64,000 nucleotides of DNA from Clostridia bacterium. GTDB taxonomy: Bacteria > Bacillota > Clostridia > JAAYHZ01. The DNA lies in assembly GCA_050950825.1 (NCBI GenBank), contig JBMNIH010000009.1, positions 192,001 through 256,000 on the forward strand, read 5' to 3'. Under the pieces are notes generated by a model. It worked only from the letters and a program-made list of their open reading frames with translations. It ran no database searches and was not told where the DNA came from. Below are positions 10,397-14,432 of this stretch, piece by piece. Position 1 is the stretch's first letter, and each line of letters begins with the position of its first letter. The position numbers and the translations under genes are program-made.

Positions 10397-11062
10397 ATGC
10401 ACCAAGGACACAGAGAACGAGTCAGAGAACGTTTTTTAAAAGAAGGGTTGGATTCTTTTCAACCCCATGAAGTTTTGGAATTTTTATTGTTTTATTGCAT
10501 TCCCCGTAGGGATACCAATGAAATTGCTCATCGATTGATAAATGAATTCGGTTGCCTATCCAACGTATTGGAAGCTCCCGTAGAAAAACTGGCGGAAGTA
10601 AAGGGAATATCAAAAAATACGGCGGTTCTTTTATCGATGCTGCCGCATCTTTCACGTTATTATCTAAAAGATCGATGGGGACAAAGACCGGTTTTAAACA
10701 GCTCCCGAAAAGCCGGACAGTATGCGGCGGCGCTTTTAACCGGCAAAAGCTACGAGGAGTTTCTCGTGATATGTTTGGATTCCCAAAACAAGGTCATTCA
10801 AGTGGAAAATATACATAAAGGTACGGTTAATGAGGCGGTGGTTTATCCTCGTCTGGTTTTGGAAACGGCATTGAAGTACAAGGCCAACAGCGTCATATTC
10901 GCTCATAATCATCCCGGCGGCAGCTTAAAACCGTCCTCCGCCGATATCGAATTGACGGCAAAACTGAAGCATTTGCTCAACGGGATCTCCATTCGTGTAA
11001 ACGACCACATTATTGCAGCCGGTACCGAATTTTTCAGCTTTGCGGAAAACGGAATGATTTAA
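10397..11062 (+). CDS. radC: RadC (JAB/MPN domain) family protein
   Basis: HQGHRERVR.RF, IPRRDTN, HhH motif, AHNHPGG...PS.AD, DHII. Confidence 0.95.
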   Translation: MHQGHRERVRERFLKEGLDSFQPHEVLEFLLFYCIPRRDTNEIAHRLINEFGCLSNVLEAPVEKLAEVKGISKNTAVLLSMLPHLSRYYLKDRWGQRPVLNSSRKAGQYAAALLTGKSYEEFLVICLDSQNKVIQVENIHKGTVNEAVVYPRLVLETALKYKANSVIFAHNHPGGSLKPSSADIELTAKLKHLLNGISIRVNDHIIAAGTEFFSFAENGMI

Positions 11063-11123
11063 CCTGAATGTAACCTGAAAGGAACGTGGCTTCTGTTGAG
11101 TTCTTTTTTTTCTATGCTATAAT
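11060..11123 (+). promoter_or_regulatory. Extended -10 promoter with upstream 11-bp-period direct repeat
   Basis: TAACCTGAA at 11060-11068 and 11071-11079; TTGAGT at 11096-11101; TGcTATAAT at 11115-11123. Confidence 0.55.
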
Positions 11124-11286
11124 CAAAGCATAGTCCAAACGGACGAATGGCCTAGTTGCTACTTTAAGGAGCATTCCTGTAGTGAAATAAAATGAACTTT
11201 GAAAAAGAAGATGCCGTACTGTAGAATTTGAAATGTGAGTTGCACAACATGTAACCACAAATCAAAATCAACAGGAGGCATCTACA

Positions 11287-12570
11287 ATGAAGTATACCCA
11301 AAATGAAAGAATAATGCAAATAACAGAAAAAACATTGATTGTTGGAATTGATGTTGGAAGCGAAACACATTACGCCCGAGCATTCAATTTCAGAGGATTG
11401 GAATACGGAAAGCTATTGAAATTCAATAATGACGCGGAAGGGTTTTCAAGGTTTGAAGATTGGGTCAGGAAACTAGTCAATAACAATGGATTCAAGGATG
11501 TGACGATAGGTATGGAGCCCACCGGGCACTATTGGTTCAACCTTGGAGAATATATCGAAAGACAAAGCGGTATGAGGATCGCGTTGGTTAATCCTCACCA
11601 TGTAAAGAAAAGCAAGGAATTGGATGACAATAACCCGAGTAAAACCGACCGAAAAGATCCGAAAACCATCGCCATGCTGATTAAAGACGGCAGATATATA
11701 GAACCCTATCTACCGGAAGGGGTATACAAGGAATTGCGAACGGCTATGGACAGCCGTTGGCGAATTATGAAGGAGCTTTCCGCAATCAAGAATAGGATTA
11801 GCCGATGGCTTTGCATATACTTTCCCGAATTGACGAAGGTGTTTAAGGATTGGGAAGGGAAAGCGGCGATCCTCGTATTGAAAGAGTACGCGACACCGAC
11901 GAAGATAAAAGAGAAGGGTATTGACGGAATCATAGCCGTTTGGAAGGAACACAAGATACGAGCAGTCGGAAGAAACAGGGCAAAGATGCTGTTGGAGGCA
12001 GCCGTCTCGTCCGTAGGAACGACGGAAGGGCTAATTTCCGCCGAGTATGAGTTGGAAATGCTGCTTGAAGATTATGAAAGCAAAAAACGCCAATATGATA
12101 AAACAATGGAGTTAGTCGAAAGATTGACGAAAGAAATACCGGGGTTTGAGAAATTGCTTGAAATCAAGGGAATAGGACTTGTTACGGCGGCAGGATTCAT
12201 AGCGGAAATAGGTGACATAAAGCGTTTTTCGCATCCGAAACAGATACAAAAGTTGGCAGGACTAAGTCTGAAAGAGAACAGCTCCGGGAAACATAAAGGC
12301 AAGACCACCATATGCAAGCGAGGGAGAAAACGACTGCGATATTATCTGACATTTGGGATGATGCCGTTGTTATCCAAGAATGAGGAATTTAGAGCTCTGC
12401 ACGAGTATTACACAAGCCGGAAGGAAAATCCGCTGAAGAAGATGCAATCTTTGGTTGCATTGAGTAACAAACTGATTCGGATTTTTTATGCGATACTGAC
12501 GAAAAACGTAGCGTACGATCCGCAAAAGATGATGAGCGATATAAGAAGACCTGAAACCAAAGCTGCATAA
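11287..12570 (+). CDS. IS110 family DEDD recombinase/transposase
   Basis: GIDVG, GMEPTGHYW, KTDRKD (RuvC-like DEDD), IKGIG..TAA..IAEIGD, ENSSGK (catalytic Ser); AGGAGG RBS; ORF intact. Confidence 0.97.
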   Translation: MKYTQNERIMQITEKTLIVGIDVGSETHYARAFNFRGLEYGKLLKFNNDAEGFSRFEDWVRKLVNNNGFKDVTIGMEPTGHYWFNLGEYIERQSGMRIALVNPHHVKKSKELDDNNPSKTDRKDPKTIAMLIKDGRYIEPYLPEGVYKELRTAMDSRWRIMKELSAIKNRISRWLCIYFPELTKVFKDWEGKAAILVLKEYATPTKIKEKGIDGIIAVWKEHKIRAVGRNRAKMLLEAAVSSVGTTEGLISAEYELEMLLEDYESKKRQYDKTMELVERLTKEIPGFEKLLEIKGIGLVTAAGFIAEIGDIKRFSHPKQIQKLAGLSLKENSSGKHKGKTTICKRGRKRLRYYLTFGMMPLLSKNEEFRALHEYYTSRKENPLKKMQSLVALSNKLIRIFYAILTKNVAYDPQKMMSDIRRPETKAA

Positions 12571-12757
12571 CTTACACCGCTTATGGAAGGATACATTGCT
12601 CTCGTAAGACGGTCAAGGGCAAGACTGCGTTCGGCTTGCGCCGACCCTTGACAGTCTTCCTCGAGCAATGACGGAAGTAACTAAGCGGTGCAAGGGGACA
12701 GAGTAAAACTCAAGTTTTCACTATTCATTCATTATAGATTGAACATTGACAAGAAGA

Positions 12758-12917
12758 GCCGGATAGTCGGGATGAATTTTCACCATAAGGGCAATGACCC
12801 CGTGAAGGAGCTTGACTGACATCCACCTCCATGGGCAGGCAGAACGAAGGAATTAAGGGCTATGACCCCGTTAGACATGGGAGGGTTGCCACCGGAGAAT
12901 GTGTGGATACTAATGGC
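12758..12917 (+). ncRNA. Candidate structured IS110-associated RNA (bridge/seek-RNA-like)
   Basis: Manual pairing: closing GCC..TAGT/ACTA..GGC; AGTCGGG/CTTGACT; TTCAC/GTGAA; CCTCCATG/CATGGGAGG; ATCCAC/GTGGAT; two GGG-C(A/T)ATGA-CCC hairpins. Confidence 0.55.
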
Positions 12918-13130
12918 CGTAAAACAGCAAAACGACGCAGGTTTAATTAGTATGCACTATGGAATCCATAATTATGCAACAATGTATTGTCTGTCCATGT
13001 GGCTCATCTTGAAAAATGAGAAAATCTAAGAATGAGTGAGATATTCAAAGAAAATCAAAGTATTATTAGGGAGGTGAAGAGGGTTCTTTTACGCATGTTT
13101 CATTTGCGTTTCGTTTGAGCCCTCGGATTT

Positions 13131-14432
13131 ATGAAAATTGGAATAGCTGAAGGGAATATTAGAACGCCAATCGGGATGCAAATGACCGGATATGCCGGGA
13201 GAGTATTCGGAGCCATGGATATCCATGATCAATTAAAGATGAGCGCCTTGTACATCGAATCGGAAGGTGTCGAATCCATGATTATCGTTTGTCAAGTGTT
13301 AGGCTTCGACCCTGATTTTTCTCGTGTTACCGAAGCAAAGATCTGTCAAGCCATAAATATACCGGAGACCAATCTGATCTTAGGTGCCATACATACCCAC
13401 GGCGGTCCGGCATCGGGAACCTTGTACGGATGCGGTTGTGCGGATCCGGTATGGTTGGAGCAAACGCAGCAGGACTTGATTGATCTTGCGAAAAAAGCGG
13501 TGGCAAACTCCTTTGACGGCTACTTTGAATATGCGTCCGGCACATGTGAAATTGCATTGAATCGCGTTGCCATGAGCAAATATCCGAATTACATGGATAT
13601 GATCGACAAGGAAACGGCCGTTGTGAAGTTTTATGAAACCGCTACCGGACAATTGAAAGCCGTTTTCTTAAACTACGGATGCCATCCGGTTGTTTTAAAC
13701 CACAAAAACCATTTATACACCGCCGATTATGTATATTACGCCATTAAAAAACTGCAGGAAGCATACGGAGAAGACGTAGCCGTTATATTTTCCACCGGAT
13801 GCTGCGGAGATTTAAATCCCCGTTATCGCTTTACCTTTGAAATGGCAGAGAAAACGGGTAACCTGTTAGCCGATTCGGTTGTCTCCGCAAAAAAGATATT
13901 TACAAACCGCCAAGCCCAAATCAAATGCCATGCCAAGCAATTGGTCATACCCTTGGTGATTGACTACACTTACGATGATTTGGCGGAATTTAAGAAAAAA
14001 GCGCTTGCCGAGGTCGAAAGACTTACCGAGCAAAACTACAACGAAAACTTCATTATGATTCAAGTGGAAGCCGTTAAAGCATTATGGGCGGAATTATGTA
14101 TGAAAGGTTTTGAATCCGGAGATTTGAAAACAACGATTTATCCCATGATCAAGGTTCTGCAGATCGGAGATTTGAGCTTTATAGCGCTGCCTTTTGAAGT
14201 CTTTCATGAATTGGGGTTGAAAATAAAGGGGTTGTTTAATCGAGCCGGCCGTTCCATTGTCATGGGATATTCCAACGGTGTATACGGTTATTTGCCATAC
14301 GGTGAGCTCTATGAAAAAGCAAGCTACGAAGCGAAAACCGCATTCCGTTATTACGGTTATCCCGGTCCCGTATGCAAAGAAGCCGGAGATATTATTTACA
14401 AGTATTTAGAGGAAATAGTGGATACCAACTAA
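13131..14432 (+). CDS. Neutral/alkaline ceramidase N-terminal-domain-like hydrolase
   Basis: GYAGR...G...IHD.L, AIHTHGGP, NYGCHP, ADY, G.CGDLNP, PFEVF, GYSNG.YGY. Confidence 0.75.
   Translation: MKIGIAEGNIRTPIGMQMTGYAGRVFGAMDIHDQLKMSALYIESEGVESMIIVCQVLGFDPDFSRVTEAKICQAINIPETNLILGAIHTHGGPASGTLYGCGCADPVWLEQTQQDLIDLAKKAVANSFDGYFEYASGTCEIALNRVAMSKYPNYMDMIDKETAVVKFYETATGQLKAVFLNYGCHPVVLNHKNHLYTADYVYYAIKKLQEAYGEDVAVIFSTGCCGDLNPRYRFTFEMAEKTGNLLADSVVSAKKIFTNRQAQIKCHAKQLVIPLVIDYTYDDLAEFKKKALAEVERLTEQNYNENFIMIQVEAVKALWAELCMKGFESGDLKTTIYPMIKVLQIGDLSFIALPFEVFHELGLKIKGLFNRAGRSIVMGYSNGVYGYLPYGELYEKASYEAKTAFRYYGYPGPVCKEAGDIIYKYLEEIVDTN

Follow-up and report, generated by a model that had tools for sequence, protein, structure and literature searches.

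The 3′ non-coding end of an IS110-family element from a Clostridia bacterium very likely encodes a bridge-RNA-type guide to Shine-Dalgarno sites

Here we describe an insertion sequence of the IS110 family, the family of RNA-guided DEDD transposases, in the genome of a Clostridia bacterium. The stretch analysed, called the window, comprises 64,000 nt (GCA_050950825.1, contig JBMNIH010000009.1:192,001-256,000), and the element occupies its positions 11172-13073 (1902 bp). A transposase gene (11287-12570) is flanked by a left non-coding end of 115 nt (11172-11286) and by a right non-coding end of 503 nt (12571-13073), as expected from a first-pass annotation, made from the letters alone, which had put the latter at ~500 bp. 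All features given below with window positions lie on the + strand. We suggest, with high confidence, that the right end encodes a guide of the bridge RNA/seekRNA type on the transposase strand, with a first module for the target and a second for the ends of the element itself.

The element, its ends and its insertion site

The transposase of 427 amino acids (aa) carries the two domains that mark the IS110 family, an N-terminal DEDD RuvC-like domain (DEDD_Tnp_IS110, PF01548, E 4.7e-25) and a C-terminal Transposase_20 domain (PF02371, E 2.7e-24). It matches NF033542, 'IS110 family RNA-guided transposase', with 215.5 bits against a cut-off of 140. Among solved structures there is a distant likeness to IS621 (E 2.8e-10) and to ISCro4 (E 2.9e-09), confined to the C-terminal part.

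For comparison, related loci were fetched by the transposase protein, and the best 80 of 586 candidates, with 51-77% identity, were retained. The own genome (G000) consists of 11 contigs and holds three copies of the element: that of the window, a full copy on contig C10 and a solo copy, which lacks the transposase gene, on contig C11. The right terminus is common to all three copies and reads ...TTATTAGGGAG followed by G. Both full copies start with CATTCCTGTAG, preceded by ...GAG. With the boundary marked by an arrow, the copies share ...GAG↓CATTCC and ...GGGAG↓G. The BLAST match of the window to the C10 copy ran left to 11157 through chance similarity of the flanks, and the true end was set by reading of the junctions. 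The same form is seen in the 64 relatives with both ends defined, in which a flank ...(A)AGGAG is followed by C(A)TTCCTGTA..., and the right end is ...GGGAG, GAGGAG or AAGGAG, mostly with G after it. Besides the homology with the C10 copy and the conserved ends (CATTCCTG... on the left, ...TTAGGGAG on the right), the boundaries are supported by contigs of four public RNA-library runs, which break at 11166/11167 and at 13074. Their loose flanks differ and are other insertion sites of the same element.

The left target flank (11163-11171) is TTTAAGGAG, the left half of a Shine-Dalgarno (SD)-like site, and it ends in an AG that also ends the element. The right target flank (13074-13081) is GTGAAGAG. 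The insertion site is TTTAAGGAG↓GTGAAAA, a Shine-Dalgarno site, also written across the junction as TTTAAGGAG↓GTGAAAATG. Junctions of the own-genome copies and of the relatives agree with this reading, as do contigs from two runs of two studies (X1 record 8 and X2 record 24), in which CTAGTTGCTACT is followed by window 13066-13173 with one mismatch. These contigs show the uninterrupted site, ...CTAGTTGCTACTTTAAGGAG↓GTGAAGAGG, also given as ...TTTAAGGAG↓GTGAAGAGG. Since the left flank is joined in them to the right flank, the insertion proceeded without target duplication. The AG is common to the left flank and to the right end in all clades examined; the core is CT on the opposite strand, and strand exchange took place at some point of the shared GGAG.

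Precise insertion, the absence of terminal inverted repeats and of target duplication, and a short core common to donor and target are traits of the IS110 family, and all of them are found here. Long subterminal inverted repeats are likewise absent, as the first reading had noted: between the first and the last 70 nt the best exact match has 7 bp, a length reached by 74/500 shuffles, and its position is not kept in most relatives. In the genome G001 of the same genus the radC gene and the ceramidase-like gene are adjacent without the element, and the spacer between them has diverged too far for the junction to be located. The genes next to the C10 and C11 copies have orthologues with SDs of their own, and no alignment could be drawn across the junction.

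These boundaries revise the first-pass annotation on the left side only. Its right end was correct; its left end, at ~11134 with a 5′ end of ~155 bp, lay ~38 nt to the left of the true start at 11172 (CATTCCTG...). The circle junction that it predicted, TTAGGGAGTCCAAAC, should read TTAGGGAG↓CATTCCTG, which are the joined ends of the excised circle as derived from the corrected boundaries. Its tentative SD-like target, AAGGAGGTGAA, was right. The doubt that it attached to this target arose because the left boundary was misplaced; with the true boundary the left flank becomes TTTAAGGAG.

A conserved structured core in the 3′ end

A core of 182 nt (12749-12930) is conserved downstream of the transposase gene. 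Among the 78 loci that extend for 100 nt or more past the gene, a profile search finds it in 76, the exceptions being L023 and L041, and 71 matches, 65 of them distinct, are full length. The sequence of 12751-12858 and beyond is 68-81% identical among the related loci even where the transposases share ~52% identity.

Plain RNAalifold on a 66-sequence MAFFT alignment yielded a sparse fold with 19 pairs, as the subclades are out of register, and an all-against-all column scan was too noisy to set helices. The helices were set by eye on 13 sequences of the window's subclade, and the covariance model R1, built from them, was used for re-alignment of all matches. The model scores the window at 184.7 bits and gives 78 matches over 83 sources. 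In the loci of the fetched relatives there are 75, each on the transposase strand; those on the minus strand in L002 and L003 are the own-genome C10 and C11 copies, which these records hold in reverse. At least 10 of the 150 sampled genomes of the same class also give matches, with few candidates scored per genome.

The fold contains seven helices. The closing helix H0 (12758-12760/12915-12917) encloses two modules. Module 1 (12766-12820) consists of the stem H1, GUCGG/CUGAC (12766-12770/12816-12820), and of the apical hairpin H2 (12789-12791/12798-12800). Module 2 (12821-12908) contains the stems H3, AUCCAC/GUGGAU (12821-12826/12903-12908), H4 (12832-12834/12892-12894), where CAUGG pairs, and H5 (12838-12842/12886-12890), and the apical hairpin H6 (12856-12859/12866-12869). 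In both, a stem, a large internal loop and a hairpin follow one another, which is the design of bridge-RNA loops. The long non-coding end thus holds a structured RNA gene with two internal loops, as in bridge RNAs and seekRNAs.

In the 13 sequences 88.4% of the cells are paired, against 28-48% with the partners slid, and compensatory changes occur in 15/32 pairs, against 6.3 ± 1.6 in shuffles (reached by 0/500 shuffles). The 71 distinct rows fitted to the model have 92.9% of cells paired and 19/32 pairs compensated, so that the covariation of the stems among homologues, named beforehand as a check, was found. H1 is paired in 100% of cells with 3/5 pairs compensated, and both apical hairpins are kept in the relatives (98.6% and 98.5%), again with compensatory changes. 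G-U pairs are frequent (e.g. in 55, 44 and 43 rows), which argues for an RNA of the transposase strand and not of the opposite strand. Together with the strand bias of the matches they suggest that the product of the core is an RNA.

The first-pass annotation anticipated a good part of this fold. The two units of its 18-nt direct repeat differ by one mismatch and are found precisely at 12786-12803 and 12854-12871, and the GGG...CCC hairpin that it assigned to each repeat corresponds to H2 and H6. Of the helices said to close the domain, ATCCAC/GTGGAT and GCC/GGC are real; TAGT/ACTA is paired in 63.5% of cells, no better than controls. Its arm 1, AGTCGGG/CTTGACT, was in the wrong register (74.7% paired, one compensated pair), the correct one being GUCGG/CUGAC. 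Arm 2, CCUCCAUG/CAUGGGAGG, does pair in 92.4% of cells in the window's subclade; it has 0 compensatory pairs, and in our fold its GGGAG is part of the loop.

In both apical loops the last letters before the CCC strand are a conserved UGA (12794-12797 and 12862-12865), CAAUGA and CUAUGA in the window, CAUGA and GGUGA in relatives. This may be a feature for protein recognition. A K-turn was also considered here, and the paper checked gave no basis for it.

Module 1 and the target

The 5′ strand of the loop of module 1 (12777-12784) is UUUUCACC, complementary to the top strand of G↓GTGAAAA, that is, to the last core base and the right flank; at the site of the C11 copy the first 9/10 compared letters match. 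The 3′ strand (12805-12810) is AAGGAG, which has the same sense as the left flank with the core and would pair with the bottom strand. Hence one loop is complementary to both strands of the target, with an overlap at the core, as in bridge RNAs and seekRNAs. That TTCACC and AAGGAG beside the first hairpin match the target had already been seen from the letters.

The 3′ strand tracks the left flank across the relatives. With the terminal GAG excluded, 195/323 letters match in 56 distinct pairs of 61, against 155.7 ± 5.7 on re-dealt flanks, and 0/20000 permutations reach the observed value; this count leaves out the C10 copy, in which the strand is deleted, and rows without a left end or with more than 3 unknown letters. 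Rare letters are shared between the loop and the left flank in L019 (ATGAAG), L065 (AGAAAG), L011 (GGAAAG), L018 (ATGGAG), L020 (AGGGAG) and L009 (TTGGAG). The 5′ strand matches the right flank at 143/336 letters over positions 3-8, against 125 ± 8, and 282/20000 permutations reach this. The clearest positive case is L011, with the loop UAUAC and a flank starting with TATAAAT.

Module 2 and the element's own ends

In module 2 the 5′ strand of the loop (12848-12853), AGGAAU, is complementary to bases 2-7 of the left end (ATTCCT), and the 3′ strand (12879-12884), GGGAG(G), corresponds in the same sense to the terminal bases of the right end. The second loop is therefore complementary to the joined ends, with a pairing that stops short of the core in the window's subclade. 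Five letters of the 5′ strand fit the left end in 64/65 elements (the exception is L048), and three states of the left end go with three states of the loop: ATTCCT with (C)ATTCCT, CTTCCT with CTTCCT, and CTTCT(C/T) with CTTCTT. The 3′ strand, with GGGAG or AGGAG, is identical to the right end in 68/70, the exceptions being L027 and L035. Rows with a truncated or deleted RNA (C10, L009, L069, L073) are left out of these counts.

The duplicated modules had been taken for the two guide loops, and the covariation with target and donor that was to support this is found for both of them, as module 1 tracks the insertion site and module 2 tracks the ends.

Joining of the ends would also create a promoter in many relatives. 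At least 10/12 consensus letters, mostly as TTGAC(T/A)-17-TATAAT, would span the junction in 44/64 relatives with both ends defined; these elements are the Lachnospiraceae-type relatives (loci L016-L087). A junction promoter is not evident in the window's element, where the best candidate has 8/12 letters, and the best in its subclade have 7-9/12.

Rewriting of module 1 in a Bacillaceae clade

Elements on Bacillaceae plasmids, with transposases ~48-50% identical to that of the window, contain the same RNA, which the model finds at 118-121 bits. Their module 2 and their ends are unchanged. Their module 1 reads GGGGCAG and CAACUAAAUU, and their flanks are ...GGGGCAG↓NTTAGT in 5/5 copies from five species, with TTTAGTTG in Cytobacillus firmus; the site may be written AAAGGGGCAG↓TTTAGTTG and does not represent a ribosome-binding site. 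An SD is again the insertion site in Sporomusa, at 61% identity.

This clade bears on one alternative, that the 3′ region is a 3′ untranslated region (3′ UTR) element of the transposase mRNA, acting in stability, processing or translational control, whose SD likeness reflects an interaction with the ribosome or its anti-SD. Such a role would fit the position of the core, on the transposase strand just past the gene, and the likeness of AAGGAG and GGGAGG to an SD and of CACCUCC to an anti-SD. Against it, module 1 has been rewritten in the Bacillaceae together with a site that is not an SD, so the loop follows the target and not the ribosome. The rare variants of the left flank are mirrored in the loop and module 2 tracks the element ends, both of which speak against the alternative as well. 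The CACCUCC segment (12824-12830), in the lower part of module 2, is also complementary to GGAGGTG across the insertion point. Its CACCUC is kept in the Bacillaceae despite their different target and hence looks structural rather than guiding. We consider the 3′ UTR explanation very improbable and retain the reading of the core as a guide RNA.

Sequencing runs and promoter-like sites

The sampled words of the element are present to 62-94% in eighteen RNA-labelled runs, all of them metatranscriptomes from biogas fermenters, digesters or sludge. Contig depth was higher over the 3′ part than over the transposase part (56.3 vs 15.6, 210 vs 93 and 55 vs 30). We rejected depth as evidence of expression, for contigs, relatives and solo copies all add to it. 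The left non-coding end, whose first bases CATTCCT form the left donor arm, contains a promoter-like TTGAAA-17-TAGAAT at 11199-11227, with 10/12 consensus letters, a consensus match only. We suggest that the guide RNA is probably made on the transposase transcript from this site and processed afterwards.

Other copies, remnants and the downstream gene

The C10 copy (C10:170866-172699, L002, minus strand) is 99.3% identical to that of the window and has an intact transposase gene with 5 amino-acid differences. It lacks 68 bp between the 18-nt repeats, so that a single fused module is left, in which the 5′ half of the target loop continues into the 3′ half of the donor loop; the model scores it at 48.9 bits, against 184.7 for the window. 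The letters of this hybrid loop would match the integrated right junction.

The C11 solo copy (C11:100517-101016; L003:1501-2000, minus strand) is a 500-bp segment, 100% identical to window 12579-13078. It starts 9 nt past the stop codon and is seated exactly at ...AAAAGGAG↓G ... GGGAG↓GTGAAAATGATG, with a right junction of the usual form, before a long open reading frame (ORF). It arose either from mobilisation of the module only, which has been reported for the ssr9 module of ISPpu9 (PMC12288879), or from a deletion that ended precisely at the left terminus. A search for a pseudo-end or a microhomology at 12570-12600 that could account for its origin gave nothing convincing. A further remnant is present in the genome G148 (L105 = G148:C14:214800-217000, ~1053-1597). 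It consists of the last 45 nt of the gene, an RNA core of 166 bits and the right end ...ATTAGGGAG↓GTATATAATTATCATG, again before an ORF. Its left boundary is different, inside the gene end, and no transposase of the clade was found in this genome (99% complete; E up to 1e-30, window-type query). Since this remnant lacks the transposase and has a different left boundary, plain deletion does occur.

The right-end tail (12931-13073) ends in ...TTATTAGGGAG, and its GGGAG together with the G of the flank restores the motif GGAGG of a ribosome-binding site. In 39/55 distinct right flanks of at least 140 nt, an ORF of at least 40 codons begins, in the orientation of the element, with a start codon 3-15 nt past the element end; random positions of the same flanks, a crude control, give 210/900. 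For the copies on C10 and C11 the distance to the ATG of a long ORF is 9 and 6 nt, respectively. A possible reason for the retention of remnants is that their right end now provides the downstream gene with its ribosome-binding site.

A long imperfect hairpin (12575-12691) follows the stop codon and has a folding z-score of -4.31. It is confined to the nearest relatives of the window's element, being alignable only in L009 and L010 among the 80 loci, with a degraded copy in the G148 remnant. Its stems are kept, with one compensated pair, and its large internal loop varies, with strands of 10-12 nt that differ among the window, L009, L010 and G148. When its loops were compared directly with flanks and ends, no consistent match appeared. 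The hairpin may be a processing site, e.g. for a double-strand-specific RNase, or an added guide-like module.

In the surroundings of the element, the upstream neighbour is a RadC-like gene, and downstream a ceramidase-like gene begins at 13131. The latter has no evident ribosome-binding motif directly upstream (13074-13130); its counterpart in G001 is preceded by AAGGAGG with a 9-nt spacer. A frame of 14 codons (GTG...TGA) begins at the first base past the element. Five further IS110-family transposase genes, 27-28% identical to that of the window, are located on the G000 contigs C2, C3, C7 and C10; three of them have equal scores and probably represent a single other element in several copies. 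At C3:44104-44238 there is also a short piece of a relative with 76% identity.

Discussion

We conclude that the element is an IS110-family insertion sequence and that its 3′ non-coding end in all likelihood encodes a guide of the bridge-RNA/seekRNA type on the transposase strand. The reading is carried by the ends of the element, the conserved structure of the core, and the covariation of the guide with both target and donor. That the guide RNA is bound by the transposase, and that the chemistry follows that of IS621 and ISEc11, we presume by analogy. The element would then be a further example of a known mechanism, from a Clostridia clade homing to Shine-Dalgarno sites, with a well-resolved natural guide code.

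The proposed mechanism is as follows. Module 1 would read the target, as UUUUCACC and AAGGAG together specify AAGGAG↓GTGAAAA, a Shine-Dalgarno site. Module 2 would read the donor, with AGGAAU pairing to (C)ATTCCT of the left end and GGGAG corresponding to ...AGGGAG of the right end; jointly the two strands would define the end-to-end junction of the excised circle, TTAGGGAG↓CATTCCTG. Strand exchange may then proceed at the shared AG (CT on the other strand), leaving no duplication. After the insertion, the GGGAG end with the G of the flank would rebuild a ribosome-binding motif for the downstream gene.

Several observations weigh against this interpretation. The match to the right flank is weak, often needs a shift of 1 nt and is poor in many loci, e.g. 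L010, L016, L026, L035 and L045. The guide and the ends are inherited together, with few independent switches behind the donor counts, and in the window's subclade the 5′ strand of module 2 pairs neither with the first base of the left end nor with the core. The alignment of 71 rows was fitted to the model and leans towards it. By itself, the core domain folds no better than shuffles (z +0.59), so that its support comes from conservation and covariation and not from folding energy. No Rfam family matched in a scan of 10500-13600 with E up to 1; StyR-143 appeared at chance level, with 21.9 bits against a gathering score of 176. The evidence from RNA libraries consists of contigs, which give no strand, ends or level and may include DNA carry-over. 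The scan found neither a promoter-like site immediately before the core nor a terminator-like site, and the promoter-like sites of the whole scan number 5, against 4.1 ± 2.1 expected. The window copy itself is not directly before a long ORF, as the next gene starts 57 nt downstream.

The points on expression would also be met if the conserved 3′ region acted as DNA, with subterminal sites for binding of the transposase or for synapsis, and if the matches reflected DNA-DNA or protein-DNA recognition. The location of the core, inside the element near its right end, would agree with this as well. However, the helices are kept through G-U pairs, which are C-A on the other strand and G-T in DNA, the pairs are compensated to the extent given above, and the core lies 143 nt from the right end and is not terminal. 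In addition, guides with this two-strand logic have been proven to be RNA for IS621 and ISEc11 (PMC11208160, PMC11187229). Recognition at the DNA level thus appears most unlikely. Least probable of all is that the strongly folding hairpin at 12575-12691 is the real guide and the domain 12758-12917 secondary: its best z-score, kept stems and variable loop are set against its occurrence in two of the 80 loci and as a degraded copy, its loops that match neither flanks nor ends, and relatives that have the same ends and SD targeting without it.

With the guide-RNA reading of the core kept, a broader picture can be drawn, which we put forward as speculative and rather unlikely in its entirety. In it, a clade of bridge recombinases targets ribosome-binding sites, which the right end of the element then restores, and the guide-RNA module, with the third hairpin as an extra guide-like or processing part, is a unit in its own right, able to persist or move in trans without the transposase. 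The idea of an independent module comes from the C11 solo copy, 100% identical and placed exactly at an SD site, and from the transposase-less remnant in G148.

The clade offers a second natural template, bridge recombinases with a guide code mapped to single nucleotides, and a case of natural re-programming between the SD-homing Clostridia clade and the GGGGCAG↓NTTAGT-homing Bacillaceae clade. An IS1111-like order of the guide strands together with a long IS110-type transposase, in an element that lacks long subterminal repeats, bears on the move of the RNA between element ends in evolution. Homing to SDs in the orientation of the gene, with restoration of GGAGG, could keep the ribosome-binding motif of the downstream gene and may also explain the keeping of transposase-less remnants. 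Such 3′ tails should be annotated as RNA genes.

Comparison with known systems

A literature search for SD targeting by IS110 elements gave nothing relevant; ISfinder entries and the supplements of PMC11208160 and PMC11187229, which may include the clade, were outside its scope.

The closest mechanistic likeness is to the IS621 bridge RNA (Durrant et al. 2024, PMC11208160; 8WT6). There too, a recombinase with DEDD and PF02371 domains is guided by a single RNA whose two internal loops bind target and donor. On either side of a shared CT core, each loop is paired with DNA, to the left with the bottom strand and to the right with the top strand; here the core is AG on the transposase strand, that is, CT on the other. 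In both systems the target loop is 5′ of the donor loop and insertion is precise, without duplication. Unlike in IS621, whose RNA is located in the left end, the RNA of our element is 3′ of the gene; the transposase has 427 aa instead of 328, with significant alignment in the C-terminal part only (E 2.8e-10), and the window's own element has no evident junction promoter. With the core 3′ of the gene in all 76 loci that contain it, the element also departs from the IS110 group in the sense of ISfinder, in which the guide RNA is upstream.

In the order of its guide strands the element resembles the seekRNA systems of ISEc11, ISPa11 and ISKpn4, members of the IS1111 family (Siddiquee et al. 2024, PMC11187229). 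For elements of the IS1111 group the RNA is predicted in the right end (PMC11208160), and some IS110-family elements also have a 3′ non-coding region (PMC11187229). Where the non-coding region is downstream, the top-strand match is 5′ of the bottom-strand match, the reverse of the IS110-type order (PMC11187229). The same is found here, with a long downstream region (503 nt, against 115 nt upstream), UUUUCACC (top) before AAGGAG (bottom), matches that overlap at the insertion point, and natural re-programming between related elements. The IS1111 family differs in its subterminal inverted repeats of 7-17 bp, which were not found here, and in its transposases of 330-350 aa (PMC11187229), against 427 aa here, a comparison of length and not of IS1111 sequence. 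The layout had been called unusual at the first reading. Two loops and a 3′, top-strand-first order are already known, and what sets the element apart is their combination with a 427-aa transposase and the lack of long subterminal repeats.

Two further systems show related features. CazIS110-1 of Caloranaerobacter azorensis (bioRxiv 10.1101/2025.10.25.684509) is a Clostridia IS110 element with a two-loop bridge RNA, for which loop-only RNAs are reported beside the full-length RNA. ISPpu9 with Ssr9 (Pares-Guillen et al. 2025, PMC12288879) is also of the IS110 family, with an RNA gene downstream and extra transposase-less copies of the module in the genome. Ssr9 is reported as not required for transposition, and the targets of ISPpu9 are REP sequences, whereas in the element described here the 3′ module carries the candidate guide loops.

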